DNA of 32,000 bases from NCBI RefSeq assembly GCF_000186885.1, contig NC_014972.1, positions 2,310,001 to 2,342,000 on the forward strand. The letters run 5' to 3'. The notes under the pieces were generated by a model. The model was not told the DNA's origin. It was given only the letters and a program-made list of their open reading frames with translations, and did no database searches. Position numbers and translations under genes: made by a program. This DNA comes from Desulfobulbus propionicus DSM 2032 (GTDB lineage Bacteria; Desulfobacterota; Desulfobulbia; Desulfobulbales; Desulfobulbaceae). Every line of letters begins with the position of its first letter. Within the stretch, counting starts at the first letter, position 1. Shown here piece after piece: positions 220-25,965 of the stretch.

Positions 220-1782
220 TTATTCTTTTATCGCTGCCGTTTCCTCGGCTTCGGGCAGCGCCAGGCGGAACAGGGTGCCCGGCAGCTGGGTGCCGGCCGG
301 TCCGGAAACGGGACTTTCAATTTCAATGGTCCCGCCGTGCTCCTGAATAATGCCGTAGGAAACCGAAAGCCCCAAACCGGTCCCCTTCCCCACCGGCTTG
401 GTGGTGAAAAAGGGGTCGAAAATCCGCGCCTTGATGTGTTCCGGAATACCGTGGCCACTGTCGCGAACCTCGGCAATGACCTTACCGGTCTGGCGGTCGA
501 AGCGGGTGGCAAGGTGCAACTCGCCGCTGCCCTGCCCTTCCATGGCGTGATGGGCGTTGTTGATCAGATTGACGACCACCTGGCGCAGCTTTTCCGGGTC
601 GCCGACAATGGGCGGCAGATCGGGGGCCAACGTCAACAGCACCTTGATATGACTGAGGTTGAGACTGTGTTCGGTGATCGCCACGGCATCCTCGATGATC
701 TCGTTGACATCCACCGTTTCCCGGGCGCTGCCCGATTGGCGCGAATACTTGAGCAGATCGGCCACAATCTTGCGGCTGGCCTTGGTCTGACGCTCGATGA
801 CTTCAAGGTTCTGGTATGTTTCCGAATCCTTGTCAAAATCATCCATCATCAACTGGGCGTACCCAAGAATGATGCCGAGCGGCGTATTGATCTCGTGGGC
901 GATACCGGCGGCCATCTGTCCGACCGAGGCCATCTTTTCGCTGGACACCAGCTGCTCCATCATGGTCTTCAGCCGGGTCAAATCCTTGGCAATCCCTTCG
1001 GAGCCGATGATGTTGCCCTGTTCGTCATAGAGGGCGGTGGCCGAAATCAGCACGTAAATGGTCGTGCCGTCCTTTTTCTTGAATTCGGATTCGAGATCAC
1101 GAATATATCCATCCTTTTCCAGCATCACGGCGTAGGTGCGCACATCTCCCTCGTGGCGGAAAATATCGCGCAGAGTCAGCCGGGAGAGCTCATCGGCCGT
1201 GTAGCCCAGCATTTCCGAACCCGAGGCATTCATATCAAGAATTGCGTGACTGCTGTCGGAAAAAAAGACCATGTCCTTGGAGGCGGTGAACAGATGACGA
1301 AATTTCCGCTCCGACTTGGACAGCTCGGCCGTGCGCTCCTCGACCTTGTCTTCCAGGTTGAGGTTCAACTCCTTCAGTTCGTTGGCGGTTTGGGTTAGAC
1401 GAATCTTGGACTGTTTGAGCTTGGCCGCCTCCTGCTCAATGGCCTCGTATGCCTGCACTCCCTTGTGATAAAAAATCATCACTGCGGCCACTGAAATCAT
1501 GCACAGGGTATTGAACCCTCCGGAATAGGGGGCAATGCCCTGCCAAAGTTCCCCCCTGCCGACAATAAAAAGCAGTTCCTTGGCGATGTGGCCAACGGCC
1601 CTGGACACGGCAAAGGCGGTAATCGCCAGGGTGACGTAGAAAAGGCAACCCCAGAGAAAATTCTCCGGCTTGAGCCGGGTGAGACGAAAGGCGTACCACA
1701 GGGACAAAAAGGAAAAAAGGATATTGGCCGCCGAGCCGGCGATGTCGACAATGATGGTCGGCAGCAGGGGCAGGCCGTTCAT
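220..1782 (-). CDS. Membrane-bound PAS-domain sensor histidine kinase
   Basis: Track ORF 220..2232 trimmed to ATG 1782..1780 ([13 protein letters not shown]...). This start forms an ATGA overlap with the upstream gene stop, and the 150 upstream codons are Pro/Arg/Gly-rich shadow sequence. Motifs: H-box [19 protein letters not shown]-box [14 protein letters not shown]1 RDSGHGIP, F-box FDPFFTTK, G2 GTGLGLS. A PAS-like block runs from [14 protein letters not shown] to [10 protein letters not shown]. The N-terminus has about 3-4 hydrophobic helices with short loops. Confidence 0.9.
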
Positions 1783-2258
1783 TTGCCGCTCCCCGCCGAG
1801 GCGGTGACCACCGAACGATAAAACGAACGCAGGCCGAGAAAGAGGCAGAAAAGGGCCGGCACGTACATCAGATGATCGAGCTTGGTGATGAAATAGAGAT
1901 ACTGGTGCAGGGTCAGGGGGCCAACCAGCCGGGTCTGCAGGTAGCAATCGGTCTGCAACAGGGCCTGCGGATCGAGATAGACACCGACAAGATGACCAAT
2001 GAAGGCCAGCGTGTTCCAGCAGGCCATCAGAATACAGAACATCTGCAAGTAGCGCCATCCACGGCCGGTAAAGGAAGCGCGGCGGATATCCCAGTAAAAA
2101 TAACCGAGGGCAAAGATGTAGTGCAAGTGGGCCATCTGATGGACGTACAGCCCTTCCGGCTCCCCGTGCACCTGCAGGGCCAAGGCATTGTCCGGAAGGA
2201 CAAGAGCCAGGACGGCCATCACAAAAAACCATGTACGAGTGACTGTTCCTCTGGTCAT
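1779..2258 (-). CDS. Small His-rich polytopic membrane protein of unknown function, translationally coupled to the histidine kinase
   Basis: Track ORF 1779..2354. The stop TGA (1781..1779) overlaps the kinase ATG (1782..1780) as ATGA. The start is ambiguous between ATG 2258 (MTRGTVTRTWFFVMAVLALVLPDNALA, signal-peptide-like) and ATG 2294 (preceded by a G6 run). Several hydrophobic segments and many His residues (VHGEPEGLYVHQMAHLHY, IGHLVG, LHQYLY, LDHLMY). No family recognised. Confidence 0.6.
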   Translation of the reverse strand: MTRGTVTRTWFFVMAVLALVLPDNALALQVHGEPEGLYVHQMAHLHYIFALGYFYWDIRRASFTGRGWRYLQMFCILMACWNTLAFIGHLVGVYLDPQALLQTDCYLQTRLVGPLTLHQYLYFITKLDHLMYVPALFCLFLGLRSFYRSVVTASAGSGK

Positions 2259-2310
2259 CAAGGCACGTTCAGTTCGGGTTTCATGCACACACATTGTTCT
2301 GCCCCCCATT

Positions 2311-2327
2311 AGCACGATGCGTACCAG
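2311..2327 (-). promoter_or_regulatory. Candidate sigma54 (-24/-12) promoter upstream of the membrane protein/kinase/regulator operon
   Basis: Minus strand reads CTGGTACGCATCGTGCT against consensus YTGGCACGrNNNTTGCW. The GG and GC dinucleotides have canonical spacing and 11 of 14 specified positions match. The predicted TSS near 2300 leaves a leader before ATG 2258. Confidence 0.3.
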
Positions 2328-10938: not shown

Positions 10939-11541
10939 ATGAACCTAGTCCCCATGGTTGTTGAACAGAGTCCGCGCGGCGAGCGGGCTTTTGATATCTA
11001 TTCCCGGCTGCTGAAGGAGCGGATCATCTTTCTTGGCACGCAGGTTAACGACGACGTGGCCAGCCTGGTGGTCGCCCAGCTGCTCTTTCTTGAAGCCGAG
11101 GATCCGGACAAGGATATCACCTTTTACATCAACTCCCCGGGAGGTTCGGTGACCGCCGGCATGGCCATCTATGACACCATGCAGTACATCCGTTGCGATG
11201 TGGCCACCCTCTGCATGGGGCAGGCCGCGTCCATGGGGGCCCTGCTGCTGGCCAGCGGCGCGGCTGGCAAACGGTTCGCCCTGCCCAATTCGCGGATCAT
11301 GATCCATCAGCCCATGGGCGGCTACCAGGGACAAGCCACGGATATCGATATTCATGCCCGGGAGATTCTACGCATGCGGCATGATCTCAACACCATTTTG
11401 GCCAGGCATACCGGCAAATCGATGAAGAAAATCCAGGCCGACACTGAGCGCGACAACTTCATGAGCGCCACGGAGGCATGCGAGTACGGTATCATCGACA
11501 AAGTTTTAACCAACCGCGAGGAACTGGGCGGGGAGAAGTAA
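10939..11541 (+). CDS. clpP: ATP-dependent Clp protease proteolytic subunit
   Basis: Track ORF 10870..11541 trimmed to ATG 10939 ([33 protein letters not shown]), with GGAGAAG 5 nt upstream. The catalytic Ser context GQAASMGA and the His context MIHQP are present. Confidence 0.95.
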
Positions 11542-11543
11542 CG

Positions 11544-12812
11544 GTGAGCAACGATTTCCACGATGAGCACAGTATAACCTGTGTGTGTTCGTTCTGCGGT
11601 AAAAGCCAGGAAGAGGTCGGCAAGCTGATTGCCGGACCCAACGTCTATATCTGCGACGAGTGCATCGGACTGTGCAATGAAATCATGATGGAATCTTCCG
11701 AGGAGGAGCACTCGCCGGCCGAGTTCGGCAATCAGGTGCTCAAGCCCAAGGAGATCAAGGCCTATCTCGACCAATATGTGGTCGGCCAGGAGCATGCCAA
11801 ACGAATCCTCTCGGTCGCGGTGCACAACCACTACAAACGCATCAGCGCCCCACCTGCCGACGACGATGCGGTGGAACTGCAGAAGTCGAACATCATACTG
11901 ATCGGCCCCACCGGCAGCGGCAAAACCCTGGTCGCCCAGACCCTGGCCCGACTGCTCAAGGTTCCGTTCACCATTGCCGACGCCACCACCCTGACCGAAG
12001 CCGGTTATGTCGGCGAGGATGTCGAAAACATCCTGGTCAGTCTCTTGCAAGCGGCGGACTATGACATCGAAAAGGCGCAACGGGGCATCATCTACATCGA
12101 CGAGATCGACAAGATCGCCCGCAAGTCGGATTCCGCCTCGCTGACCCGCGATGTCTCCGGCGAAGGCGTGCAGCAGGCCCTGCTGAAAATCATCGAAGGC
12201 ACCATGGCCTCGGTACCGCCCAAGGGCGGACGCAAGCACCCGCAACAGGAGCTGGTCCGCATCGACACCACCAATATCCTGTTTATTGTTGGCGGTGCCT
12301 TTGTCGGCCTGGACGGGGTGATCAAACGGCGAACCGGCACCCAGGCCATGGGATTTGGCGCCAAGGTGGTCAGCCAGAAGGAGCGCTCCATCGGTGAAGT
12401 GCTGGCCTCGATCCAACCCGAGGATCTGCTCAAGTTCGGCCTCATTCCGGAGTTGGTCGGCCGCCTGCCGGTGATTGCCACCATGGAAGAGCTGGTCGAG
12501 GAAGATCTGATTCGCATTCTCAAGGAGCCGAAAAATGCTCTGAGCAAACAGTATCAGAAATTGTTCGAATACGAAGGAGTCACCTTGCGATTCACCGAGG
12601 GCGCCTTCAAGGCCATCGCCCAGAAGGCCCTGGCGCGCAAGTCCGGCGCCCGCGGTCTGCGCTCGGTGATGGAAGAGTGCATGCTGGATGTGATGTACGA
12701 GCTGCCGTCAGACGAGCACGCCACCGAATGTGTCATCAATGAACAGGTCATCACCAACGGTGAGTACCCGGTCATTCTTTACGACAATGCCGAGACAAAA
12801 AAAATTGCCTGA
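11544..12812 (+). CDS. clpX: ATP-dependent Clp protease ATP-binding subunit ClpX
   Basis: Track ORF 11478..12812 overlaps clpP, so the start is set at GTG 11544, 2 nt after the clpP stop and preceded by GGGAGAAG. Zinc-finger motifs CSFCGK...YICDECI, Walker A GPTGSGKT and Walker [10 protein letters not shown] are present. There is no in-frame ATG before the zinc finger. Confidence 0.93.
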
Positions 12813-12821
12813 CAGCCGCCC

Positions 12822-15239
<2,418 letters not shown>

Positions 15240-15255
15240 TGCCGGCTGGCCTGAA

Positions 15256-15308
15256 CTCGGGTCGGACCGGCAACTGACTTTTGCCCACACCGAGCCTTTC
15301 TTTTTTCC
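15256..15308 (+). terminator. Possible intrinsic terminator downstream of lon
   Basis: Imperfect composite stem with outer CTCGG (15256-60) / CCGAG (15290-94) and inner GGCAA (15269-73) / TTGCC (15281-85), followed by CC and TTTCTTTTTT (15297-15306). The stem is irregular, hence the low confidence. Confidence 0.3.
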
Positions 15309-15324
15309 GGCACGGGCGACAAGG

Positions 15325-15741
15325 CTATGGCGTCTCGGGGTGCGAGCGAACACCTCTCGCGGCGCGGAAAAGACTCCGCTCGATCCGCGACTGAATGAGC
15401 TCCAAAAGTCCTGGATTTTCCAAATAAGGACAGGGGGCGTCATAAGGGAATTCACGGCACTGCCTGGGGCGGGCCTCATGAATGGTGCAACGCTTGCACA
15501 TTCGATCATCGGCCAACAGGATGCAGGAGCCGTCTTCCCTTGTTTTGAAGGTATTTTTGTTCTCCAGATAGCGACGCCGCACCTCGCCGTCATTGATGCC
15601 AAAGTGACGGGCCAAGCGGTTGATATCCTCGGCGGTGAGATACAGGGTGGCACCGGGCAAACGATAGCAACAGTAACCGGGGCAGAAGGTACAGTAGGAT
15701 TTGTTGCGGGCTAAAACGTATTGTTTCGGCATGTCGTCCAT
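15325..15741 (-). CDS. YkgJ-family Cys-cluster protein (CxxCxxCC zinc/iron-chelating domain, UPF0153-like)
   Basis: Track ORF 15325..15744 begins at TTG; the ATG at 15741..15739 is preferred. Motifs are CTFCPGYCC and CILLADDRMCKRCTIHEARPRQCREFP. The ATG shares one nucleotide with the upstream regulator stop (TGATG). Confidence 0.75.
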   Translation of the reverse strand: MDDMPKQYVLARNKSYCTFCPGYCCYRLPGATLYLTAEDINRLARHFGINDGEVRRRYLENKNTFKTREDGSCILLADDRMCKRCTIHEARPRQCREFPYDAPCPYLENPGLLELIQSRIERSLFRAARGVRSHPETP

Positions 15742-17171
15742 CAACGAAAACTCCTTGATTCAATGTGGTACCGCCGTAGCAGACGCTGGAAAGCCTGCCG
15801 TTCCATGCCGCAGTTTCGTGCGGCGGCGGTGACGTTGCCGCCGGCCGCTTGCAAGGCCCCGGCCAGGTAGACGGCGTTGAACCGGTGGAGGATGGCATTT
15901 TTTGCTTCCCGGTAGGGCAAGTGATCCAGCCCCTCCACAGCCAGCGGTCCGTGGCCGGACTCCGCATGGGGTTGCGGCGGTACAGGCGATTCCGACTCCT
16001 CCCAGAGATCCGCCACCTCAAGGACTGAGCCGCGGCAAAGCAGCACAGCCCGGTTGATTGTGTTCTGCAGTTCACGGACATTGCCCTGCCATCTGTGCTG
16101 CATCAAAGCCTGCAAGGCCTCGTCGCTGAATTCCAGACCATCCCGTCCGTGCTCGCGGCTGTACCGCTCAAGAAAATGCTGGGCCAGCAGCGGGATATCG
16201 CCAACCATGGCCGCCAGGCTCGGCATGGTCACGGTCATGACGTTGAGCCGGTAAAAAAAATCCTCCCGAAACTCTCCCCGCCTGATCTTGGCTTCCAAAT
16301 CCTGGTTGGTGGAAGCGATTACCCGGACATCCACCCTGAAGGTCTTGGTTTGTCCCAGGGGCTGGACTTCTTTTTCCTGCAACACCCGCAGCAGCTTGGT
16401 CTGCACGCTCACCGGAATATCGGCCACCTCGTCCAGCAGGATGGTTGTACCGTCGGCTTCGACGAACAAGCCGATCTTGTCGCGATCCGCTCCGGTAAAG
16501 GCCCCCTTGCGGTAGCCGAACAACTCGCTCTCCAGGATATGCTCGGGCAATGCCGGGCAATTCACCGTGATCATGGGACGGCCGGCCCGCGGCGAGAGGC
16601 CATGCAGGGCCCGGGCCGCCAATTCCTTGCCGGTGCCCGATTCACCGCGAATGAGCACGGTGACGTTACTCGCCGCAATCCGCCGCAACAGATCCACGGT
16701 TTGGACCAAGCGCCGCGAACGGCCAATGAAACCGTGCTGTTGCTCCTGGCTGCTCAGCCGGTGCTGGAGCTGCACGTTTTCTCGCAGCAGCTGGGTTCGT
16801 TCGAAAGCCCGGCCGACGGTGCGGATGATCCGTTCGTTATCGAAAGGTTTTTCGATGAAATCGTAGGCCCCGTCCTTCAACGCCTGAACCGCCATGCCTA
16901 TGGTGCCGTAGCCGGTCATCAGGATGGTGGTCACCGCAGGATCGATCATCCCTATCTGCTGGAGCAAGGCCAGCCCGTCCATGCCCGGCATCTTGATATC
17001 CGTGAGCACCACATCGGGCGAATCGCCCCGCATCCGCTCCAAGGCCTCCTCGGCTGAAGTGGCCGCGGTCACGTCATAGCCGCCCTTTTTCACCAGCACC
17101 TTGGTCAACAAAGTGAGCATGTCGCGTTCATCGTCAACGACCAGTACCTTGGCCTGTTTTCCGTGCTCCAT
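15741..17171 (-). CDS. NtrC-family sigma54-dependent response regulator (REC + AAA+ + Fis-type HTH)
   Basis: Track ORF 15741..17183 begins at TTG; ATG 17171 (MEHGKQAKVLVVDDE) is preferred, with GAGAGGG upstream. REC has phospho-acceptor VVLTDIKMPGMDG. AAA+ has Walker A GESGTGKE, the GAFTGA loop (RKGAFTGAD) and Walker B ILLDEV. The C-terminal HTH is NVTAAARNCGMERQAFQRLLRRY. Confidence 0.93.
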   Translation of the reverse strand: MEHGKQAKVLVVDDERDMLTLLTKVLVKKGGYDVTAATSAEEALERMRGDSPDVVLTDIKMPGMDGLALLQQIGMIDPAVTTILMTGYGTIGMAVQALKDGAYDFIEKPFDNERIIRTVGRAFERTQLLRENVQLQHRLSSQEQQHGFIGRSRRLVQTVDLLRRIAASNVTVLIRGESGTGKELAARALHGLSPRAGRPMITVNCPALPEHILESELFGYRKGAFTGADRDKIGLFVEADGTTILLDEVADIPVSVQTKLLRVLQEKEVQPLGQTKTFRVDVRVIASTNQDLEAKIRRGEFREDFFYRLNVMTVTMPSLAAMVGDIPLLAQHFLERYSREHGRDGLEFSDEALQALMQHRWQGNVRELQNTINRAVLLCRGSVLEVADLWEESESPVPPQPHAESGHGPLAVEGLDHLPYREAKNAILHRFNAVYLAGALQAAGGNVTAAARNCGMERQAFQRLLRRYHIESRSFR

Positions 17172-17179: not shown

Positions 17180-18223
17180 TCAATCGTTGGCGCCGACCAT
17201 GGCCTGAAAATAGAGCTGGACAAACTTACCGGACATGGTGTCGGCCGAGGAAAAGCGAAGATCGTCCGCTGGTGGGATGCGGCCGGTCAGGGTTTCAAAG
17301 GCGTGCCGCGACAAACCGGAGATCGTTCCTTGCAACTCATCGCTGCGACGTTCCTTATCTGGGATGCACCAATAGCGGCAACGCGGCGGCCGATCAGCAA
17401 AGACCAGGCAGCCATCCTGGCCAAGCAGCGGACAACGAAGCGGCGCTTCGGGAAAGGCGTCGGCCAAGGCATCGGCGCTCAAACCGGGCTGGCGGTGGTG
17501 AAGTTCCTTGAGCAGCCGGGCCAGGCCGAGGGCCCGATCAATCACCTGCTGACGCTGTTCCTGGGTGAGACTCCTGTTGATTGCCTGGCTGAGGTGCATG
17601 CTTTCTATCAGCAGAAGTTCAAACGGCCGGCCGCAGCAGGCCGTGTCCCCCCGGCCGCAGCAGGCGTGGTCCGCGGGCGGGCTCCACAGTTCGTCAAAAT
17701 GGGCGATCAGTTGATCAAAGGCCCGAAGCAACGGCGAAACATCCAGGGACGGACGGTTGTCGATCCGAGGCAGCGCCGTCTGCAAGGAACCCACCTGCTT
17801 GCCGTATTGTTTCAGAAAGCGACGTTGGGCGAAAGTGGCCGGATTGGCGCTTTTCCCCTTCATGGTCTGTTCCGCCCGTTTGTAGTCAAAGCCCCGGCGC
17901 AGCAAATAGGCGGCGATAAAGGTGCCGGTGCGACCATGCCCCATGCGGCAATGCACCAGCACCTTCTTGTCGAGATAGATGGCCTCGTCCATCCAGTCCA
18001 GCACCTGTTCCATGGCTTCGAGATCCGGGGCGCATTCGTCGACCACCGGCAGATAGCGGACCTCGAAGCCGCTGTTTTCCTCAATCTGATGCAGATCGCA
18101 GAACTCGCCGCAGAGATTGACAATGGCGCGAATTCCCTGGGCGCGAATGGCATCCAGATCCTCGTAGGACATGGGCGCGTGGCCAGTGGCCAAATGGGGG
18201 GTAATCCAGTTCAACTGGTACAT
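17180..18223 (-). CDS. Dual-specificity (Cys-based, CX5R) phosphatase domain fused to a C-terminal YkgJ-type Cys-cluster domain
   Basis: 347-aa ORF. The N-terminal ~150 aa are DSP-like, with a P-loop VLVHCRMGHGRTGTFIAAYLL. The C-terminal half carries ACCGRGDTACCGRPFELL and CPLLGQDGCLVFADRPPRCRYW, the same pattern as the stand-alone YkgJ protein at 15325..15741. The start lies 4 nt after the dikinase stop. Confidence 0.8.
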   Translation of the reverse strand: MYQLNWITPHLATGHAPMSYEDLDAIRAQGIRAIVNLCGEFCDLHQIEENSGFEVRYLPVVDECAPDLEAMEQVLDWMDEAIYLDKKVLVHCRMGHGRTGTFIAAYLLRRGFDYKRAEQTMKGKSANPATFAQRRFLKQYGKQVGSLQTALPRIDNRPSLDVSPLLRAFDQLIAHFDELWSPPADHACCGRGDTACCGRPFELLLIESMHLSQAINRSLTQEQRQQVIDRALGLARLLKELHHRQPGLSADALADAFPEAPLRCPLLGQDGCLVFADRPPRCRYWCIPDKERRSDELQGTISGLSRHAFETLTGRIPPADDLRFSSADTMSGKFVQLYFQAMVGAND

Positions 18224-18227: not shown

Positions 18228-20792
18228 CTAGGGGATAATGGAAGTTGTGGAGCCGTGGAAGCGGTCGGCCTTTTGAAAAAACAGCTGCACGCGCGAATCG
18301 ATTTCTTCCTCGCGCAGCACCATGTCGAGCAATTTGGTCATGCCGAGCAAACGGCCCACCGCAACCAACACGTCCAACAGCTCGCCAGCTGGACAACCCA
18401 TCAGGCGGGCATCGAGCAGGTCGGCGCGAACACTGACCTCAAACCCCAAACGTCCGAGAATCTGCCGCAGCAAGGCAATGCGGATCGAGCGTCCCTGATA
18501 ATCGCCGCCCCCGCCGGCAAAGCGCAACTGGCAGTGATTGGCCCGGCTGTCGCGGCCGCAGAGGCAGTCAATCAAGGTGAAGTGAAAGCCAAAGCGCATG
18601 TTCAGATTGAGATACTCCGGGCTGACCACCGCATAGGAGGCAAAATCCTTGGACCCGCCGCTGGCGATGCCGCCGGCCAGGGCCATGTCGCCGAATCCCT
18701 GCCAATCGAAATGGAGGTGACTCTGCCAGTCGATCTCAGGACTGCTGAGCCCCTGCCACAGGGCAAGAAACGGTGCGGCCTGCAAGCTCTCGGGGGCGAT
18801 GGCCGCCTGCTGTTCCTCGTTGGCAAAGGCACCGCCCACGTCAAGGAGGTAGATGTCGAGAGGCAGTTCGGTGGCCAGCTTGCGGCAGCGGGAGGCGGCG
18901 CCGCCGGCAGCAATATCGCCGAGGCCAAACATGATCTGCACCGCTTTTTCATGGGCATAACGGATGATGTCATGCAGCGAGCGGCAGGATTGGGGTCTGA
19001 ACTCTGGAGAGTGCGGGTCGAGTAGATGCAAGGGGGTGATATGGTCGAGCAGGCTGCGCAGCTTGGCAGCGTAGGGCGATCCTGCCACCTTTGCTTTCTT
19101 GCGGCTGCTGTCCAACAGTGCGTCAATCTTGCCCGGATACACCCTGCCCTGGTCGCCATCGACAGTAACCTCCTGGCCTTCAGGCAGGAGGACACGGGCC
19201 TGGGTTGCCTCCACCAGCAACACCACCCCGAATTCCCGACAGACAGTGGCAAAATGCCCCGTCACCGACCCCTGCTCACAGATCACCGCCGCAAGTCGGT
19301 CGATATACCGCACCAGGGATGGCGCAATGTGGCGGGTGACCAGAACGGTGGCGGAATCGAGAGCGGCTTGTTCCAAGCGGTCGAGATGCCGAATCACCCC
19401 GAGGGCAACACCGCCGGCCGCCCGCTTGGCATTGGCAAGCAGGGGATGACATTTCGCAGGCAGAGGGTTCGTCGTTATTTTGGCTGGCGGCTCCGTTCTG
19501 GACGATTCCCGGCACAACGGCCGCGATTGGAGGATGAACAGATGTCCCTCTGAATCCATGGCCCACTCGATATCCTGCGGGACGACGAAAAAACGCTCCA
19601 GTTCCCGGCCAACAGCTGCAAGGCGCGCGGCTTGCGCCTGGGTGAGCGAAAGAGTCGCGGCCTGATCAGCTGCCAGATCCTTCTCTTGGAGCTGTCCTTG
19701 GAACAGAACCAGCTGCTGCCGCTGGTTGCCGGCAACGATCCGGGTGGGGTGCTCACTTTCCGGACCAAAAACGAAAACATCCGGAACTACCGCTCCTCCC
19801 ACCAAGGGGAGGCCGAGGCCGCGGATGCTGTGCACCAGCAAAGATTGTCCCTCGGTCACCGAGGGGTCGCGGCTGTAGAGCACGCCGCTGGCCACGCTTT
19901 CCACCATCACCAACACCAGCACCGCCATGGCCGCGTCCTCGTCGCCAATACCGGCATGGATGCGGTACAGCAGGGCCTGGGGGGTATACTTGGAGGCCAA
20001 CACCTCGAGATAGGCCGCCAGCAGTCCATCCCGGTCAATGCCAAGCAGTGAATGGTATTGGCCGGCAAAGCTGTGGTCACCGTCCTCGTGCAGGGCGGAG
20101 GATCGAACCGCGACCCGGAGGATTTCATCCGGCCCCGTGACGGCCAGGCGGTCGTATTCAGCCAGGATTTCCTGGGCCACCAGCGGCGGAAGCTCCATCC
20201 GCCGGATCAGGGTCATCAGCGCCTGCGAGGCCTCGTCCAGGCTGAGGGGCACTTCGAGGTCAATTGCGGCCAAGAGCAAATCCAGGGCGGGCCGCAGTCG
20301 ATTATGCTCGATCAACAGGTCAAAGGTCGTGGCGGTGATGGTGAAGCCGTCGGGTACCTGGGCTTTGGCCTCGTGTTTGAGCAACAGTAGATGTTGGCTC
20401 TTGTTGCCTACCAGGGACGGCTCCGCTGGACTGTTGTGGTCGACAACAAAGGGAGGAATCAAGAATCGCTCCGGCGGAGCCAACACCAGACGGGCGTAAA
20501 AATCGTACTTGTTGAAATAGTCGCGCAGTGAACCGGCTATTCCGGGATGCATCTGCTCCAGGGCGGCAATCATGCCAGCTACCGCCTCGGCCAATTGCCG
20601 ATAGCGGCCGCGAGTCCGCGCCAGGTCTTCCTTTCGCCCCTCGTGGTAAAGCACCTCGAACTCGGCCATCAATTCATGGCACCTGCCGTCGAACCCAAGC
20701 AAGGCCTTGAACCCCTCGTAGGTTTGCTGGAGGATCCGGTCCGGAGCGAACAGCCGCAGTGACCAGTGTTTAAACAGCGCGCCGACCGCCAT
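18228..20792 (-). CDS. PpsA/PPDK-family dikinase-like protein (ATP-grasp PPDK_N + swivelling phospho-His domain) with unassigned N-terminal (~125 aa) and C-terminal (300 aa) regions
   Basis: Track ORF 18228..20930 trimmed to ATG 20792 (MAVGALFKHWSL), with GGGGAGGGGGG directly upstream; it overlaps the thiL end by 23 nt. ATP-grasp motifs: LVGNKSQHLLLL, VRSSALHEDGDHSFAGQYHS, MAVLVLVMVESVASGVLYSRDP, DIEWAMDSEGHLFILQSRP. Swivel-His motif: EQGSVTGHFATVCREFGVVLLV. The last 300 aa (18231..19130) lack the GTNDL and CGE motifs of PEP-utilizers_C. Confidence 0.8.
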   Translation of the reverse strand: MAVGALFKHWSLRLFAPDRILQQTYEGFKALLGFDGRCHELMAEFEVLYHEGRKEDLARTRGRYRQLAEAVAGMIAALEQMHPGIAGSLRDYFNKYDFYARLVLAPPERFLIPPFVVDHNSPAEPSLVGNKSQHLLLLKHEAKAQVPDGFTITATTFDLLIEHNRLRPALDLLLAAIDLEVPLSLDEASQALMTLIRRMELPPLVAQEILAEYDRLAVTGPDEILRVAVRSSALHEDGDHSFAGQYHSLLGIDRDGLLAAYLEVLASKYTPQALLYRIHAGIGDEDAAMAVLVLVMVESVASGVLYSRDPSVTEGQSLLVHSIRGLGLPLVGGAVVPDVFVFGPESEHPTRIVAGNQRQQLVLFQGQLQEKDLAADQAATLSLTQAQAARLAAVGRELERFFVVPQDIEWAMDSEGHLFILQSRPLCRESSRTEPPAKITTNPLPAKCHPLLANAKRAAGGVALGVIRHLDRLEQAALDSATVLVTRHIAPSLVRYIDRLAAVICEQGSVTGHFATVCREFGVVLLVEATQARVLLPEGQEVTVDGDQGRVYPGKIDALLDSSRKKAKVAGSPYAAKLRSLLDHITPLHLLDPHSPEFRPQSCRSLHDIIRYAHEKAVQIMFGLGDIAAGGAASRCRKLATELPLDIYLLDVGGAFANEEQQAAIAPESLQAAPFLALWQGLSSPEIDWQSHLHFDWQGFGDMALAGGIASGGSKDFASYAVVSPEYLNLNMRFGFHFTLIDCLCGRDSRANHCQLRFAGGGGDYQGRSIRIALLRQILGRLGFEVSVRADLLDARLMGCPAGELLDVLVAVGRLLGMTKLLDMVLREEEIDSRVQLFFQKADRFHGSTTSIIP

Positions 20793-21804
20793 CCCCCCTC
20801 CCCTCGCCGTTGCGGAAATGATCAAACCCTCCATAGGTGACGGCCCGCTCCTCGGTGCGACCGTCCGGGAGTTGGCGCAGCAGGAGAACCCCTTCGCCAT
20901 GGACGATGGTGCCGACCGAAGCCAGGGCAAGCCCGCATTGTTCGCCGATTACCCGCAGGGAGTTCTCGGATTCCGGCGCGGCGGTGAAAAGCAATTCATA
21001 ATCCTCACCGCCGCCAATCATCCATTGGAGGGTATCGGCATGGCACAACCTCGCAGCCTCGTCTAAGGGAGCTATACCGGGCAGGGCCGACGAAGTCAGC
21101 CGTGCCCCCACCCCGGACCGCTTGCACAGGTGGGCGAGATCGGTGGCCAACCCATCAGAGAGATCCATCATCGCGTGCGCCAGCCCGGTTTTACCCAGCC
21201 GTTCCCCGAGCTCTACCCGGGCCCTGGGGTTCAGATGCTTCTCGTATAACGGACCAAAATCCTCCCGATCGATCATTCCCCGGTGGAGCAATTCCAGGCC
21301 GGCGGCAGCCAACCCGAGCGGGCCGCTGACCCAGATGACATCACCCGGCCTGGCACCGCTGCGATAGACCACCTGATCCACCGCTGCCTCGCCAATAACG
21401 GTCAGGCAGAAATTAAGCCCCTGCGGGCTGGCCACGGTATCGCCGCCAATGAGCAGGCAGCCGTATTCCCGGCAGGCATCATTCAGCCCCTGGGCAAACG
21501 CTTTGAACCAAGATTCGTCGAAACCGGGCGGCATGCCAACCGACAGCAGAACAAAAAGCGGCTTTCCCCCCATGGCACCGATATCGCTGACATTGACGGA
21601 AACTGCCTTGCGGCCCAGTTTTTCCGGCGGGTGAAAGGCGCAGTCAAAGTGGACCGATTCGATCAGGGTGTCCATGGTCAGCAGCCAGACTTCGTGATCA
21701 TTCTTGGCAATCACCGCGCAGTCGTCACCGATCCCTTGAATCAATCGTCCATCCATGGGGCCGACAAGTGTAGTGATGTATTCGATGAGTTGGCGTTCGT
21801 TCAC
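20770..21804 (-). CDS. thiL: Thiamine-monophosphate kinase
   Basis: Track ORF 20770..21855 starts at GTG. The start is set at GTG 21804..21802 (VNERQLIEYITTLVG), which forms a GTGA overlap with the ptsI stop (21803..21801). This gives the usual ~24 residues before GIGDDCAV. Other motifs: DTLIESVHF, GRKAVSVNVSDIGAMGG, LIGGDT, GGGEDYELLFT. Confidence 0.88.
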   Translation of the reverse strand: MNERQLIEYITTLVGPMDGRLIQGIGDDCAVIAKNDHEVWLLTMDTLIESVHFDCAFHPPEKLGRKAVSVNVSDIGAMGGKPLFVLLSVGMPPGFDESWFKAFAQGLNDACREYGCLLIGGDTVASPQGLNFCLTVIGEAAVDQVVYRSGARPGDVIWVSGPLGLAAAGLELLHRGMIDREDFGPLYEKHLNPRARVELGERLGKTGLAHAMMDLSDGLATDLAHLCKRSGVGARLTSSALPGIAPLDEAARLCHADTLQWMIGGGEDYELLFTAAPESENSLRVIGEQCGLALASVGTIVHGEGVLLLRQLPDGRTEERAVTYGGFDHFRNGEGRGDGGRRAV

Positions 21805-23594
21805 GATTGATAAAAATCTCTTGGATAAAAACGTTGAAAGAAATCGGTCACACACGCACGCACCTCGCCACTGTCCGCGCAGTGGAGGACCTCTTGGGCC
21901 AATAAGTGCAGCTCTCCGCTGTGGGAATGCCGTAACAACCGTTTGATCCAGGGAATAACCGCAGGGCGCATCGACAGCTCATCCAGCTCAAACCCTATCA
22001 ACAGCGGGGCACAAAGAGGGTCACCGGCCATCTCGCCGCAGAGCGACACGGGAATGGCGCGGGCATGGCCGGCGTCGACCGTCTGTCGGATCATCCGCAG
22101 CACCGCGGGATGAAAGGGGTCGTACAAATGAGCCACATACTGATTGCCGCGGTCAATGGCCAGGGAATACTGGATCAGGTCGTTGGTGCCGATGGCAAAA
22201 AAATCCACTTCCATGGCAAGGACATCGCTCATGATCACGGCACTGGGAACTTCGATCAACACCCCGATTTCAAGGTCCTGGTCAAAAGGGATTCCTTCGG
22301 CCGCCAATGCATTCATCGAGTCGTGGATCATCTCCTTTGCCTGGCGCAGTTCCTGCAAGGTTGACACGAGAGGCAGCAAAACGCGCAACCGGCCATGGAC
22401 CGAGGCCCGGAGCAGCGCTCGCACTTGACAGCGAAAAATCTCCCGCTCGTACAGGGAAAAACGAATCGAACGCAGACCGAGAGCCGGATTGCGTTCCCGA
22501 TCGAGCCACGCCTTGTTGCCGGGAAAACGGGCAAGGATCTTATCGCCGCCTACATCGAGGGTGCGGATGGTCACCGGATGCGGGGCCATAGTTGCCAGGA
22601 GGCGGGAATACGTAGCCAGTTGCGCCTCTTCCGTCGGTGGCCGGATCCCTTGAAAAAAATCGAATTCGCTGCGAAACAGCCCTATTCCCTCCGATCCGTA
22701 GCGAAGCACGGCAGAGAGTTCCTCCAGCATCTCGATATTGGCGCTCAAGCGAACGGGACACCCATCCTTGGTTTCCGAGGTCAGATGCACATAGCGGTCC
22801 AGCCCCTCGGCCACGGCGCGATAGTGCTGATCGTTCTCCTGCAGTCGAATAATTTCATTAGGTTGGGGATGAACGACCACCTGGCCCGTTCCGCCGTCGA
22901 GGATAATCGGCTCGCCGGTGTGCAGGATGGAGGTCGCATGCTCCAGGCCGACCACCGCCGGTATATTGAGAGATCGAGCGACGATGGCGGTATGGGAGAT
23001 TGTCCCCCCTTTTTCCGTTATGAAACCAAGAACATTGGCCGACTGCAGTCGCAGGGCATCCTCTGGCGAGAGATCATTGGCAACCAGGATGGTGGGCTGG
23101 TCTGCTGTCTTGCCCTTGGGCGCATATTCCCGGCCGGTAAGCAGACCGAATACCCGATCGGCCACATGCTTGATATCGGCATATCGGTCGCGAATATAGG
23201 GATCGTCAATCAGGGCGAACCGCTCCTTGATTTCGTTCAGGGTCTGGGTCAACGCCCATTCCGCATTGACCTTGTTTTCCCGGATAATGGCCGCGGTGCG
23301 TTCGACAAACATCCGGTCTTGGAGCATCAGCAAATGGGAATCGATGATCGACAAGGCATCATCCATGTGGTCAGCCAACTGCTGCCGCAACTGGATGAGT
23401 TCCTCCCGGGCGGCAGAGATGGCCTGGAAAAAACGTTGGATCTCCGATGCAAGGTGCTCGGCCGGCAGGTGGCACCAACCAGCTCGCCACGTCTGCCGTT
23501 TGACGACAACGACCGTGGCGACCACAATACCGGGCGACACACCAATGCCCTGTAAGACGCGGGAAGTTGTCGACCTGCTTTTCGTATTCTCCAT
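21801..23594 (-). CDS. ptsI: Phosphoenolpyruvate-protein phosphotransferase (PTS Enzyme I)
   Basis: 597-aa ORF with the active-site His context EKGGTISHTAIVARSLNIPAVVG and C-terminal barrel motifs FFAIGTNDLIQYSLAIDRGN and SLCGEMAGDP. Confidence 0.93.
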   Translation of the reverse strand: MENTKSRSTTSRVLQGIGVSPGIVVATVVVVKRQTWRAGWCHLPAEHLASEIQRFFQAISAAREELIQLRQQLADHMDDALSIIDSHLLMLQDRMFVERTAAIIRENKVNAEWALTQTLNEIKERFALIDDPYIRDRYADIKHVADRVFGLLTGREYAPKGKTADQPTILVANDLSPEDALRLQSANVLGFITEKGGTISHTAIVARSLNIPAVVGLEHATSILHTGEPIILDGGTGQVVVHPQPNEIIRLQENDQHYRAVAEGLDRYVHLTSETKDGCPVRLSANIEMLEELSAVLRYGSEGIGLFRSEFDFFQGIRPPTEEAQLATYSRLLATMAPHPVTIRTLDVGGDKILARFPGNKAWLDRERNPALGLRSIRFSLYEREIFRCQVRALLRASVHGRLRVLLPLVSTLQELRQAKEMIHDSMNALAAEGIPFDQDLEIGVLIEVPSAVIMSDVLAMEVDFFAIGTNDLIQYSLAIDRGNQYVAHLYDPFHPAVLRMIRQTVDAGHARAIPVSLCGEMAGDPLCAPLLIGFELDELSMRPAVIPWIKRLLRHSHSGELHLLAQEVLHCADSGEVRACVTDFFQRFYPRDFYQS

Positions 23595-23603: not shown

Positions 23604-23873
23604 TCAGGAATCATCCTGGCTAGTAAGCAGCACAAGGGCAGCCTGCAACGCCCCTTCAGCCCTGTCGCCATCGGCACGCAAGGTCAGGTTCGTTCCCTCG
23701 ACCAGGGCAAGGGCCAGAACATCGAGGATTGAAGAACAATCAACCGTTTCATCTGCTCGGCTGATGGACAGCACCACACCGAATTCCGCCGCAATTCCCG
23801 CCAGCCGGGTGGCCACCCGGCTGTGCACCCCGCGCCGATTGCCGACAACAAGGTCGCACGCACAGGTCTTCAC
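23604..23873 (-). CDS. ptsH: HPr-family phosphocarrier protein
   Basis: 89-aa ORF with a GTG start. His15-like site GNRRGVHSRVATRLA and a Ser46-like region DCSSILDVLALAL. It ends 9 nt upstream of ptsI, and its GTG overlaps the upstream gene stop as GTGA. Confidence 0.85.
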   Translation of the reverse strand: MKTCACDLVVGNRRGVHSRVATRLAGIAAEFGVVLSISRADETVDCSSILDVLALALVEGTNLTLRADGDRAEGALQAALVLLTSQDDS

Positions 23874-24250
23874 TTGACAATCCGCAAACCCGGTTTTCGC
23901 GGCCCTTGTTGTTGCCCTTTTCGTCGCGCCGTTGGATCAATTGCCTCGCTCGCGGGCGGGTCAAACCGAACCGCCTTGATAAATCTTCCCTCACCGCCCA
24001 TGGTGAAGGTTTCCTGGCCGGTGAACTGGGGCGTGCGCAGGGTCCAAATCACCGTCTGCACCGGAATGGACAACAGGTGCAGGGTCACATGCCACCATTC
24101 CTCCTTGCGGGTCTGATCGCGTTCGATATCGCCCACTAATGCGTACACGAGCATCTGCGGTGATTTTGCAGCAATAAGAACAATATCGCCCACGGTGGTG
24201 GTTTCTTTGAAGGACACAATTTTTTTGAGCTCAGCAACCAACTGTTCCAT
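23870..24250 (-). CDS. Hypothetical 126-aa protein with a basic C-terminal tail, coupled to ptsH
   Basis: ATG-initiated ORF (MEQLVAELKKIVSFKETTTVGDIV...) whose stop TGA (23872..23870) overlaps the ptsH GTG (23873..23871). No family recognised. Support is positional (operon context and overlap) only. Confidence 0.55.
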   Translation of the reverse strand: MEQLVAELKKIVSFKETTTVGDIVLIAAKSPQMLVYALVGDIERDQTRKEEWWHVTLHLLSIPVQTVIWTLRTPQFTGQETFTMGGEGRFIKAVRFDPPASEAIDPTARRKGQQQGPRKPGLRIVK

Positions 24251-24312: not shown

Positions 24313-25965
24313 TCAGTGGCGCATCGTATATTCGATCTCCAGCGCCAGTTCATCCTCGTGGGCGTAGCTGCGGAGGCGGCTGGTTTCAATTGACTCCATC
24401 CGCTTTAAGGCGGGAAGCACAATCTGTTGAATCAGCACTCTGGTCTCCGGCGTCAGGATGTCTGTCTTTCCCCCGTTGCCCTTGGCCAGGAGGGTCAACA
24501 AAGGAAGCAATCGTTGCACGATCTGGCCTGTTCGTAGAAAAAGAATAACATTGCTCCCTTCCCTGACAGTGTCCCGCGCAGCCTGATCAGATTGGACGAT
24601 ATATCGATGCACTTGTTCGATCAGGTCAACACGGTCGGCGAAAACGAGCATGTTTCCCATGAGAGAATAGGCCGGTTGCAGCAACCCGCCGGCGAGAATG
24701 ACGGAGACAATTTCCGCTTTCTCGCTGACCACGGTTACCGCTTGAAGATCGGCAAGCATCTTCCTGAGCAATGCCTCAACCCGGCCACGGTCACGCACCT
24801 CAATGGCCACACAAGCCATGGAGCGAGGCGATTGATGAGCCTCCTGCTGTCTCGTTATGAATACCCCGAATTCGCTGCCGAATACATCAAAAAACGTTTG
24901 CGTGGTTTGTTCGGTGGCGTGCGCGAGGTAGGTGGAAAAATTGGCCAGGAGGGAGGTGACCTCGGGTGTCCCCGTGTTTTGTACTAACTCCCAGAACGAT
25001 TGCAGATTGAACCAGTTGGTCCAAAAGAGAAACTCTGTCTCTGGAGAAATGTATTGAAACCATCGTCTCTCCACAGGGAACGTCATATGATATCGGTTGG
25101 TTAACGCAGACAAACGTTCCTGATCGATCAGAGCCAGCGCGCCAAACCGTCCTTTTCCGCCGTCGTGCTGGTGAAAGAGAGCAATCTGTTGCAGAGGGCT
25201 TTCTTCTCCGTCTTTACCTAAATAAGGAAAGGGAGATAGAACCTGGAAATTGGCGAAGAGAAAGGGATCGGCCTTGGCCCCGGCAAATGTTTTCAACCGA
25301 TGATACCGTTGATTGACCCGTAATCCGGTCTGATTCTGCACCATGTGCTGCAAGGATTGATTGATGCATCGTTGCACCGACCGTGCCGTCAAAGAGGCGA
25401 TCAATATCTGGCGGGTCAGGCAGTACGATACTGCAATTCCGTGGTCAAATTGAAGTGTGACCAGACGTTGCCGTTGGTAGGTCGAAACCGAGGTTGACCG
25501 GACCGGGCCGAAAGAATCCTCAAACCATTGCAGCGGTACAGTTTCCTTGGGCACCCGGACGAGGACGACCAAATTATGGGCCATCGATTCGTTGGACAAT
25601 CGTGTTTGCGATGGATCTGGCAACAAGGCAACAGCGGCTTTGCGGGTGAACAGTTGCGCGAACAGAGGCACCTTGGTGACCTGCTCAATGGAGGCGCCAA
25701 AGGTGGACAGTTGGCGGGTAAATGATTCCGGTAGCCCCTGCCTGGAAAGCAAGGATACCAGGTCGAAACGACGCAGCTGCTCCCCGACCAGGCTCTGACG
25801 CCATTGGCCCCAAGTGTGGGCCAGGTTGTCACCCTCGAGCACGATAGCGGTTTCTGCAGGGAGAAAATCGACCAATTCGGGAGTCGGCGGACGTTGGCGG
25901 GTAAGCCAATACCCGCTCAGCCCCACAACGAGGCAACTAGCCATCAGCGCTAACAATCGTTTCAT
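24313..25965 (-). CDS. Membrane-anchored/exported protein of unknown function (~550 aa; size and layout reminiscent of DUF3352-type proteins, unverified)
   Basis: Track ORF 24313..26025 trimmed to ATG 25965 (MKRLLALMASCLVVGLSGYW, signal-anchor-like). It overlaps the hybrid kinase 3' end by 29 nt. No catalytic motifs recognised. Confidence 0.65.
   Translation of the reverse strand: MKRLLALMASCLVVGLSGYWLTRQRPPTPELVDFLPAETAIVLEGDNLAHTWGQWRQSLVGEQLRRFDLVSLLSRQGLPESFTRQLSTFGASIEQVTKVPLFAQLFTRKAAVALLPDPSQTRLSNESMAHNLVVLVRVPKETVPLQWFEDSFGPVRSTSVSTYQRQRLVTLQFDHGIAVSYCLTRQILIASLTARSVQRCINQSLQHMVQNQTGLRVNQRYHRLKTFAGAKADPFLFANFQVLSPFPYLGKDGEESPLQQIALFHQHDGGKGRFGALALIDQERLSALTNRYHMTFPVERRWFQYISPETEFLFWTNWFNLQSFWELVQNTGTPEVTSLLANFSTYLAHATEQTTQTFFDVFGSEFGVFITRQQEAHQSPRSMACVAIEVRDRGRVEALLRKMLADLQAVTVVSEKAEIVSVILAGGLLQPAYSLMGNMLVFADRVDLIEQVHRYIVQSDQAARDTVREGSNVILFLRTGQIVQRLLPLLTLLAKGNGGKTDILTPETRVLIQQIVLPALKRMESIETSRLRSYAHEDELALEIEYTMRH

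Follow-up and report, generated by a model that had tools for sequence, protein, structure and literature searches.

The window, that is, the whole 32,000-nucleotide stretch of Desulfobulbus propionicus DSM 2032 DNA that was analysed, carries on its minus strand a gene for a phosphatase fused to a cysteine-cluster (Cys) domain. The gene lies between those of a dikinase and a sigma-54-dependent response regulator. The features of the locus are listed below.

17180..18223, minus strand: whole gene of the 347-aa DSP/PTP phosphatase and Cys-cluster domain fusion (ORF, stop codon included)
17789..18223, minus strand: phosphatase domain, residues 1-145, with putative general acid D62 and invariant Q133 (Pfam, PDB profile, Foldseek, conservation)
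17924..17956, minus strand: P-loop VHCRMGHGRTG, residues 90-100, with catalytic Cys92 and Arg98 (sequence and conservation)
17183..17776, minus strand: C-terminal domain, residues ~150-347 (transitive PF03692 link and Cys conservation)
18228..20792, minus strand: partner dikinase, 854 aa from the conserved start MAVGALFKHW (Pfam; start from 44 orthologues)
15741..17171, minus strand: sigma-54-dependent response regulator (receiver, AAA+ and HTH_8), 8 nt past the phosphatase stop (Pfam/NCBIfam)
15325..15744, minus strand: stand-alone YkgJ with the canonical CxxCxxxCC, final operon gene in this genome (Pfam PF03692, 3.8e-10)
2751-5006: ppk1, 12-15 kb from the phosphatase gene
1782..2326, minus strand: displaced stretch in which the conserved cluster continues (tblastn with cluster members as queries)
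2326-2311, minus strand: sigma-54-type promoter-like site TGGTACGCATCGTGCT (promoter-like-site scan)
2282-1782, minus strand: 170-aa membrane protein behind this promoter-like site (tblastn)
to ~223, then 202-2, minus strand: PAS histidine kinase followed by a CheY-like gene, beyond the 170-aa membrane protein (tblastn)

The first-pass annotation had described a 347-aa frame at this site, placed 4 nt after the dikinase gene, and both statements agree with the minus strand as read; translation of the plus-strand frame at 17180..18223 gave nonsense. The dikinase stop codon (TAG, 18230-18228) is followed by the four nucleotides AATC and the phosphatase ATG at 18223, and the phosphatase stop codon (TGA, 17182-17180) by GAGGGA and the response regulator ATG at 17171. 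Homologues that align over the full length, with 43-82% identity, were found in more than 80 species-level genomes. The gene is real, the fusion of a DSP and a Cys cluster recurs in relatives, and it is conserved in sulfur-cycling deltaproteobacteria (Desulfobacterota). The AF2 model of the protein has a pLDDT of 84.8 and a pTM of 0.82. Literature searches retrieved no paper on the DSP-Cys-domain architecture or on DSP-PTPase/YkgJ function, and none that described a combination of a PpsA-type dikinase, a Cys-based DSP and a YkgJ-type domain.

The N-terminal domain passed the Pfam gathering scores of PTP-SAK (69.8 bits; cut-off 27), Tc-R-P (67.2 bits) and DSPc (43.4 bits; cut-off 33.5), and the CX5R motif that had been assigned to it from the letters alone was found at residues 90-100. 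Residue conservation was counted over 81 sequences of the phosphatase-Cys family. In the P-loop, H91, C92, R93, G95, G97, R98 and T99 were each invariant (81/81), as was Q133 (81/81); D62 was present in 80 of the 81. D62 occupies the general-acid Asp position, 30 residues before the catalytic Cys, and in the PDB profile alignment it is matched to the acidic Asp of ShufPTP. The equivalent residue in Tk-PTP is Asp63, a conserved general acid/base (PMC5965843). Profile matches in the PDB included ShufPTP (8.5e-18) and Tk-PTP (1.5e-16), and Foldseek searches with the phosphatase model returned VHZ, MKP5, Tk-PTP and SsoPTP with a TM of ~0.8. On these grounds, we assign the N-terminal half as a Cys-based dual-specificity/PTP phosphatase that is intact and most like the archaeal enzymes Tk-PTP and SsoPTP and human VHZ. 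An anti-phage defence role, prompted by the family names PTP-SAK and Tc-R-P, was rejected, since PADLOC gave no match for the phosphatase, the dikinase or YkgJ.

The small atypical DSP/PTPs Tk-PTP (5z5a), SsoPTP (2i6i), engineered ShufPTP (9e9l) and VHZ/DUSP23 (4erc) share their fold with the phosphatase and were its best sequence-profile matches (8.5e-18 to 4e-8). The HCX5R(T) P-loop, the upstream Asp acid and the conserved downstream Gln are common to all of them. These enzymes are stand-alone proteins of ~150 aa; the 347-aa protein adds a Cys-cluster domain of 200 aa and shares an operon with a dikinase or, in some relatives, is fused to one. In place of the second acid of Tk-PTP/VHZ (Glu132/Glu134), which is not conserved, manual alignment mapping puts Ala129.

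The C-terminal domain consists of a divergent CxxCxxCC/YkgJ-superfamily core (residues ~160-290, with C189, C196, C197, C264, C272 and C282) and a family-specific conserved tail of 55 residues (~293-347; LSR..LTG..PP..LRFS.ADT.SGKFVQ.YFQ). The window protein had no Pfam match in this half even at E<=10, PF03692 included; ten of 20 homologues matched PF03692 weakly (best E 3.6e-4), and the link through stand-alone proteins that pass PF03692 was strong, the profile of the Cys domain reaching them at E 1e-17 to 1e-20. Conservation was unequal among the cysteines: C188 was found in 11/81 sequences, C189 in 67/81 and C196 in 73/81, and C197, C264, C272 and C282 were the four invariant ones (81/81 each). 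The first "CC" (C188-C189) is thus no conserved feature of the domain. Of the eponymous N-terminal CxxCxxCC of YkgJ, a C-x6-CC is left, in which only the last Cys (C197) is invariant. The C-terminal C-x(7-8)-C-x(5-9)-RP-x2-C motif is present, with C264, C272, P279 and C282 invariant, and it is this C...C...RP..CR motif that the domain shares with the CxxCxxCC/YkgJ family (Pfam PF03692, COG0727 "Fe-S-cluster containing protein"); the 55-residue tail and the phosphatase fusion set it apart from that family. We conclude, from profile and motif comparison, that the domain belongs to the CxxCxxCC (YkgJ) superfamily as one of its divergent members and that the label "YkgJ-type" holds only at superfamily level.

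A stand-alone YkgJ is encoded two genes downstream of the phosphatase, and a gene of this kind has the same position in 25 related loci. The first-pass annotation had seen the same pattern in this protein and in two segments of the Cys domain, CCGRGDTACCGR (residues 188-199) and CPLLGQDGCLVFADRPPRCRYW (residues 264-285). This stood for the C-terminal Cys motif; the first CC is not conserved, and the kinship is remote. Direct kinship to the neighbouring YkgJ was rejected: the alignment (BLASTP E 0.33; hhalign probability 22%) is limited to the 28-column motif CPLL..C..RP.CR. As for the fold of the Cys domain, Foldseek with the full model gave matches to DSP domains only, and the PDB profile search was empty. 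The domain probably binds metal, most likely as a Zn site or an Fe-S cluster, and a metal or redox role is plausible given the four invariant Cys.

Several observations concern individual relatives of this domain. The JGI annotation of one homologue, P0118, already reads [quoted passage not shown]. A sigma-54 regulator that ends in half a Cys domain (P0150) is a singleton on a 2.8-kb contig and was therefore treated as a probable chimera. The contigs that carry the stand-alone relatives of the Cys domain were too short to inform on gene context.

The partner dikinase consists of an N-terminal helical domain (~1-110), a PPDK_N ATP-grasp domain, a swivel domain with His513 (in GHFATVCREFG, where it is invariant) and a C-terminal module of ~290 aa. 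The ATP-grasp and the swivel with its catalytic His are those of the PpsA/PPDK/rifampin phosphotransferase dikinases; PDB profile matches to PpsA/RPH covered only positions 110-565, and the match to PpsA 8a8e over these two domains had an E of 9e-101. Unlike PpsA and PPDK, the partner dikinase has no PEP/pyruvate TIM barrel and carries the novel helical domain and C module instead: no Pfam match to PEP-utilizers_C was found in residues ~565-854. Since the TIM barrel is replaced by a novel module, the enzyme is not a PEP synthase. Databases name it "pyruvate, water dikinase"; paralogues without a phosphatase exist (L083). The C module (~565-854) had no match in Pfam and none in the PDB, by sequence or by fold (best fold-search E 0.059, TM <0.25), and its predicted fold is alpha+beta. 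S719 and Y727 are invariant in it and Y720 nearly so. The acceptor module is new, and its many invariant Arg, His, Asp and Gly residues fit a small-molecule pocket.

The dikinase gene lies directly upstream of the phosphatase gene, on the same strand, in 67 of the 74 related loci with enough upstream sequence, typically (modal) with a gap of 2-6 nt; the link between the two genes is a strong one. In addition, dikinase, DSP and Cys domain form a single polypeptide in P0148 (1205 aa) and P0155 (1252 aa); NSW87159.1 is a natural fusion of this kind. The clusters of these fusions hold 4 and 12 members (12 for P0155), on many independent contigs. That of P0155 is found on dozens of them, 4.3-Mb Syntrophobacteraceae assemblies included, so that the 1252-aa form is present in Syntrophobacteraceae. 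Comparative evidence thus supports the dikinase and the phosphatase as functional partners. In five to seven related genomes (L016, L038, L040, L046, L052, L080), no dikinase gene adjoins that of the phosphatase. In Dissulfurimicrobium hydrothermale, the upstream gene encodes only the N and C modules of the dikinase, with the ATP-grasp and the swivel His lost, and an intact phosphatase-Cys gene still follows it; strictly, then, the partnership needs no kinase cassette in cis.

The sigma-54 response regulator adjoins the phosphatase downstream in 45 of 68 related loci, and a histidine kinase, CheY, a GAF-HisKA protein and a split TauE recur with it. The dikinase-phosphatase pair sits in a conserved two-component/sigma-54 signalling locus, a context absent from the first reading of this DNA. 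Both fused dikinase-DSP-Cys forms have HK-CheY directly upstream, and L038, which has no dikinase, has CheY directly upstream of the phosphatase. In the Desulfobulbus group, HPr and EI share an operon with the pair; this PtsI/HPr adjacency is limited to one clade (about 21-24 loci; 21 by gene-cluster count and up to ~24 in the tblastn table).

The ppk1 gene was located about 13 kb away, as noted before, within a ~13-kb tig-clpPX-lon-ppk block that is inserted into an otherwise contiguous conserved cluster; it was found in 0 of 80 related loci. Upstream of the membrane-protein gene in the displaced part of the cluster, a sigma-54-type element was detected in 16 of 29 related loci (<=2 mismatches), compared with 3.4% of random windows. 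This element precedes the membrane-protein/HK/CheY operon, further downstream, whose order is TM170-HK-CheY-GAF-TauE. A sigma-54 promoter in front of the dikinase-phosphatase operon was rejected: matches in the window occurred at chance (21 vs 20.1 expected), and a comparison of 44 loci showed no conserved site before the dikinase gene. A role of the dikinase as phosphodonor to an orphan response regulator became less likely as well, since the conserved locus has ordinary histidine kinases of its own, which the 13-kb insertion has merely displaced here.

Paired or bifunctional kinase-phosphatase switches include PFK-2/FBPase-2, HprK/P and the PPDK regulatory protein. In these, as here, the writing and the erasing activity are encoded side by side or in one polypeptide, an arrangement that implies control of a single phospho-state; the folds and chemistry of these switches, however, are wholly different from those of the pair described above. 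The explanation that best accounts for the locus as a whole, with a probability that we would put at roughly 45%, is that the dikinase and the phosphatase are an opposing writer/eraser pair that acts on one hydroxyl-bearing substrate. ATP would load the swivel His513 of the dikinase, and the phosphate would be passed to an acceptor held by the novel N+C module. The phosphatase, predicted to be an active Cys-dependent enzyme of the small atypical-DSP type, would remove the phosphate put on by the translationally coupled upstream dikinase, with Cys92 forming a thiophosphate intermediate, Arg98 binding the phosphate and Asp62 serving as general acid. Together, the two activities would set the phosphorylation level of the substrate, and the pair would be an output or modulator unit of the histidine-kinase/CheY/sigma-54 locus in sulfur-cycling Desulfobacterota. 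The tethered Cys4(-6) YkgJ-superfamily domain, most likely holding Zn or an Fe-S cluster, may be a docking or a redox/metal-gating element. We infer that the substrate is more likely to be a signalling protein or a small metabolite than polyphosphate or a glucan. Against a single shared substrate it may be said that, as in polynucleotide kinase-phosphatase, the two activities of a fused enzyme could be directed at separate positions or at successive steps. The phosphatase genes with no dikinase beside them, the dikinase paralogues that lack the phosphatase and the Dissulfurimicrobium hydrothermale gene that has lost the kinase cassette also count against the explanation.

One alternative is that the phosphatase acts on the dikinase itself, at a regulatory phospho-Ser/Thr/Tyr or an N+C-module phosphate, and so switches it on or off. 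PPDK and PpsA are indeed switched by PDRP/PSRP regulatory proteins, and the tight coupling and the natural fusion put the phosphatase beside the dikinase. The pairing with the N+C module persists where the ATP-grasp and the swivel His are lost, and S719, Y727 and nearly Y720 are invariant in the C module. However, a regulatory phosphosite on the dikinase is without support, the invariant C-module motifs are more suggestive of a ligand pocket than of a plain phospho-acceptor loop, and some genomes hold the phosphatase without any adjacent dikinase module; we regard self-regulation as doubtful. The phosphatase could also act on the CheY-like regulator, the sigma-54 regulator, the histidine kinases or HPr/EI, the dikinase being an alternative ATP-driven phosphodonor or a separate effector. 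The signalling genes conserved in the locus, the CheY genes directly before the fused enzymes and the L038 phosphatase, and the HPr and EI genes of the Desulfobulbus group are consistent with such targets, and transfer from a swivel His to a protein has a precedent in Enzyme I and HPr. Cys-based DSPs, however, normally hydrolyse O-phosphomonoesters, not phospho-Asp or phospho-His, the PtsI/HPr adjacency is restricted to one clade, and with ordinary histidine kinases nearby the regulator needs no special donor. This makes a signalling-protein phosphatase unlikely. A further, speculative reading, which we hold only tentatively, is a new bacterial switch in which the dikinase would write phosphate on a protein or on its own N+C module and a metal/redox-gated DSP would erase it, with the histidine kinase exerting control through the CheY-like regulator and the output going to sigma-54 transcription.

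The first-pass annotation had proposed reversible phosphorylation of a glucan, by analogy with plant GWD and SEX4/LSF2 or animal laforin, or else a polyphosphate-like substrate. The partnership at its core is supported by the adjacency and the fusions; neither analogy held. That a His-swivel dikinase is countered by a phosphatase of the DSP fold is common to both systems and is all that speaks for a glucan. Pfam scans, however, revealed no CBM20/45/48 or other carbohydrate-binding domain in either protein, nor a CBM as glucan-binding platform in the phosphatase, whether whole or as its C-terminal half. A glucan phosphatase depends on a CBM or on specialised sites on its surface, and VHR, a DSP without a CBM, frees no phosphate from amylopectin (PMC9254107). 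The nearest solved relatives of the phosphatase are Tk-PTP, ShufPTP, SsoPTP, VHZ and MKP5, not SEX4, LSF2 or laforin, and no glycogen genes appeared among the gene families that recur in the cluster, whose context is signalling, not carbohydrate metabolism. In GWD, N-terminal CBM45s are followed by the His domain and then by the C-terminal nucleotide-binding domain, whereas the dikinase here has the PpsA order, from ATP-grasp through swivel His to the novel module. Taken together, a glucan substrate is very improbable. Still more so is a polyphosphate or inositol-pyrophosphate-type phosphatase tied to ppk1. The proximity of ppk1 in the window and a partial P-loop match to PTPlike_phytase (32 bits, residues 49-108) favour it; against it, the Siw14/PFA-DSP family Y_phosphatase2 was not among the Pfam matches at E<=0.1, and ppk1 is absent from the 80 related loci and lies here in an inserted block that splits the cluster.

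If the writer/eraser reading is correct, prokaryotes would gain an example of an arrangement so far described for starch and glycogen metabolism in eukaryotes, here with a PpsA-type dikinase and a DSP-fold phosphatase working against each other, and no earlier pair of this sort would have been tied to two-component/sigma-54 signalling. Function could then be approached for the first time in two orphan elements: the YkgJ/CxxCxxCC domain, widespread but of no established function, and a new acceptor module of ~400 residues that is mislabelled "pyruvate, water dikinase" in databases. Should the more tentative switch reading hold, it would reveal a chemistry of protein phosphorylation with no relation to Hanks kinases, BY-kinases or classical two-component transfer. 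At minimum, the present results correct the annotation of several hundred genes. The organisms concerned, Desulfobulbales (to which the cable bacteria belong) and Syntrophobacteraceae, live along redox gradients, which makes a Cys- or metal-gated phosphatase plausible as a redox input to gene regulation.

The phosphatase-Cys gene is a real gene, and the plus-strand translation of 17180..18223 is meaningless. The relevant features are as follows, the start of the dikinase being fixed by its orthologues.

24319-26025, minus strand, conserved protein of ~569 aa (before HPr in 16 related loci)
23873-24250, minus strand, conserved protein of ~126 aa (before HPr in 22 related loci)
about 23605-23871, minus strand, HPr-like gene (PF00381, 4.1e-16)
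21801-23594, minus strand, Enzyme I
18228..20792, dikinase, 854 aa, start MAVGALFKHW
17180..18223, minus strand, phosphatase-Cys reading frame, 347 aa
15325-15744, canonical YkgJ gene, overlapping the end of the sigma-54 response regulator gene by 4 nt
2326-2311, minus strand, sigma-54-type promoter element upstream of the TM170 gene
2282-2, same strand as the phosphatase, TM170 (170-aa membrane protein), histidine kinase and CheY genes

The motifs quoted in the first-pass annotation were found at residues 90-100 (VHCRMGHGRTG), 188-199 (CCGRGDTACCGR) and 264-285 (CPLLGQDGCLVFADRPPRCRYW), and the 4-nt spacing from the upstream dikinase was likewise confirmed: its stop codon TAG (18230-18228) is followed by AATC and the phosphatase ATG at 18223. 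Downstream of the phosphatase stop codon TGA (17182-17180), a GAGGGA ribosome-binding site precedes the ATG at 17171 that starts the sigma-54-dependent response regulator. A total of 1584 database proteins matched the phosphatase-Cys protein; the best 120 of them are nearly all full-length (~345-370 aa, 45-99% identity) and carry one name, "protein-tyrosine phosphatase family protein". A locus scan using one genome per species gave 521 confirmed loci, 80 of which were kept; at this level the loci belong almost entirely to Desulfobulbales (Desulfobulbus, Desulfocapsa, Desulfurivibrio, Desulforhopalus and Hydrosulfovibrio).

Residues 1-145 score above the Pfam gathering thresholds for PTP-SAK, Tc-R-P and DSPc. 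The solved structures best matched by a profile of 31 homologues are the engineered archaeal-type ShufPTP (8.5e-18) and Tk-PTP (1.5e-16), followed by VHZ/DUSP23 and SsoPTP, and in superpositions of the AlphaFold model of the protein (pLDDT 84.8, pTM 0.82), the target TM is ~0.8 for VHZ, MKP5, Tk-PTP and SsoPTP. H91, C92, R93, G95, G97, R98, T99 and Q133 are kept in 81/81 sequences, as is C38 of the same domain, while D62 is kept in 80/81 and is aligned to the ShufPTP acid Asp, whose counterpart in Tk-PTP is Asp63, a conserved general acid/base (PMC5965843). Judging from the conservation of the P-loop residues and D62, the phosphatase half carries all residues needed for the standard Cys-thiophosphate mechanism.

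The C-terminal half had been described as having the same pattern as the stand-alone YkgJ. The YkgJ-type label held for the superfamily alone. Residues 150-347 of the window protein gave no Pfam match even at E<=10; BLASTP against the neighbouring YkgJ aligned the CPLL..C..RP.CR motif alone (E 0.33), and when profiles of 20 C-domains and of 15 YkgJ orthologues were compared, just 28 columns aligned, at 22% probability. PF03692 was weakly matched by 10/20 homologous C-domains (best 3.6e-4). When 1.84 billion representatives were searched exhaustively with a profile of the Cys domain, 1781 matches were retrieved, and below the fusion family these included stand-alone or tandem proteins (E 1e-17 to 1e-20) that exceed the PF03692 cut-off. 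Taken together, the weak direct matches and this profile link place the domain, by sequence, within the CxxCxxCC superfamily, where it is divergent and belongs to a subfamily other than that of the neighbouring YkgJ. C197, C264, C272 and C282 are present in 81/81 sequences, C196 in 73, C189 in 67 and C188, the first residue of the "CC" noted earlier, in 11; the four invariant cysteines are compatible with a putative Zn or Fe-S site. Conservation of the last ~55 residues (LSR...LTG..PP...LRFS.ADT.SGKFVQ.YFQ) is limited to the fusion family, and a Foldseek search of the model and a PDB profile search found no solved structures related to the domain. In a singleton cluster, P0150 (472 aa, on a 2.8-kb ENA contig), a receiver and a sigma-54 AAA+ domain are followed by the C-terminal half of the Cys domain in place of the DNA-binding end; this protein is probably a chimera, though a genuine domain swap is possible.

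The partner dikinase starts with the ATG at 20792, so that its first ~23 nt (20770-20792) are shared with the end of thiL; the mechanically listed 900-aa frame begins 46 codons too early. It consists of a conserved helical N-domain (~110 residues), a PPDK_N ATP-grasp, a swivel domain that carries the invariant H513 in GHFATVCREFG, and a C-terminal module of ~290 residues, rich in invariant Arg, His, Asp and Gly (motifs include CRSLHDIIR..HE, LDVGGG, HFDW, RFGYHF and RFAGGGGDY.GR). Because PpsA and rifampin-phosphotransferase structures align to positions 110-565 only and the C module has no Pfam, PDB sequence or fold match (pLDDT-76 model; best E 0.059, TM <0.25), we rejected the source annotation, "pyruvate, water dikinase", and with it a PEP synthase role. 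L083 (6784-11887), where there is no phosphatase, has two split dikinase paralogues (a PPDK_N gene plus a swivel and novel-C gene) in divergent orientation; their neighbours are sat/apr sulfate-activation genes and two pairs of TauE/Alph_Pro_TM genes. In L086, YeeE-like, TusA and Se/S-carrier genes lie upstream. These loci show a recurrent link to sulfur transport.

Among the related loci, 74 have 1 kb or more of upstream sequence; in 67 of these a same-strand dikinase lies immediately upstream of the phosphatase, most often at a gap of 2-6 nt, and in one more it is ~450 nt away. Dikinase, phosphatase and Cys domain form one polypeptide in two protein clusters, P0148 (1205 aa) and P0155 (1252 aa). 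An assembly artefact was rejected for P0155, since its 12 near-identical members come from dozens of contigs of independent origin, among them Syntrophobacteraceae assemblies of 4.3 Mb (NSW87159.1); the range thus reaches past Desulfobulbales. The association that the first-pass annotation proposed to look for is borne out, the fusion being conserved and both halves co-occurring with a PPDK_N protein. The adjacent dikinase is missing in a few genomes (L016, L038, L040, L046, L052, L080). In Dissulfurimicrobium hydrothermale, whose genome is complete (L082 8001-9182, CP085041), a 393-aa protein joins the dikinase N-domain straight to the C module, without ATP-grasp and swivel His; an intact phosphatase-Cys gene lies downstream, and CheY, sigma-54 response regulator and histidine kinase genes adjoin. 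It thus follows that the N+C module is a stand-alone unit and the partner most constantly found with the phosphatase.

Clustering of all ORFs of the 80 loci gave a recurrent gene order: two uncharacterised proteins, HPr, Enzyme I and ThiL (Desulfobulbus clade only), dikinase, phosphatase-Cys, sigma-54 response regulator (adjacent in 45/68 loci), optionally YkgJ, TM170, PAS histidine kinase, CheY-like regulator, GAF-GAF-PAS-HisKA protein and split TauE/SafE membrane protein. Directly upstream of both fused forms are genes for a PhnD-like protein, a histidine kinase and CheY, and in L038 CheY immediately precedes the phosphatase. In the window, a ~13-kb block (2283-15324; ppk1, ppnN, Zn-dehydrogenase, MFS transporter, tig, clpP, clpX, lon) separates ykgJ from the TM170, histidine kinase and CheY genes. 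Since these genes are contiguous in relatives such as L001-L006, a conserved signalling cluster has been split in this genome by insertion of the block. The TM170 gene heads the HK-CheY-GAF-TauE operon, and upstream of it a sigma-54-type element, TGGCA[CT]-N5-xTGC[AT], occurs in 16/29 loci at <=2 mismatches vs 3.4% of random windows; in L036 the distance from the phosphatase start downstream to the element is about 3.05 kb. No conserved element of this type was found upstream of the dikinase. The response regulator next to the phosphatase probably drives the downstream operon, with the element as its likely target. Close to the window's 3' end, an rve-family integrase/transposase ORF (29204-30208, plus strand) is adjoined by a hybrid histidine kinase gene (25937-28639, minus strand).

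The reading best supported by these data, to which we assign a probability of about 0.45, is that of an opposing dikinase/phosphatase pair within a kinase/CheY/sigma-54 signalling circuit. The dikinase would load its swivel His with phosphate from ATP and pass it to an acceptor held by the N+C module, the DSP would strip the phosphate off that acceptor, and docking or gating of the phosphatase would fall to the Cys4 domain. That the phosphatase instead regulates the dikinase or the N+C protein itself is rather unlikely. More doubtful is action on neighbouring signalling or PTS proteins. The HPr-like gene and Enzyme I stand at the head of a densely packed operon that continues with thiL, dikinase and phosphatase, an arrangement limited to the Desulfobulbus clade (21 loci by gene-cluster count, up to about 24 in the tblastn table), and the ~126-aa and ~569-aa proteins encoded before HPr have no Pfam match.

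The analogy to reversible glucan phosphorylation fails on several counts and is very improbable. Glucan phosphatases require a carbohydrate-binding module or an equivalent platform (PMC9254107), and Pfam scans revealed no such module here; the DSP subfamily is wrong, and the architecture of the dikinase (ATP-grasp, swivel His, novel module) differs from that of GWD. A polyphosphate substrate, suggested by ppk1 in the window, is less probable still: ppk1 is present in 0/80 related loci, and the Siw14-type family gave no match. Defence-system models did not match either. The remaining probability falls to readings not scored apart, for example that the two enzymes act one after the other or in unrelated processes.

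DSPs, YkgJ-superfamily domains and PpsA-type cassettes are known kinds of parts. We found no paper on the three-part fusion, the novel acceptor module or their sigma-54/two-component locus, and the database names of these proteins are generic or wrong. It is possible, though on balance unlikely, that they constitute a new type of protein-phosphorylation switch.
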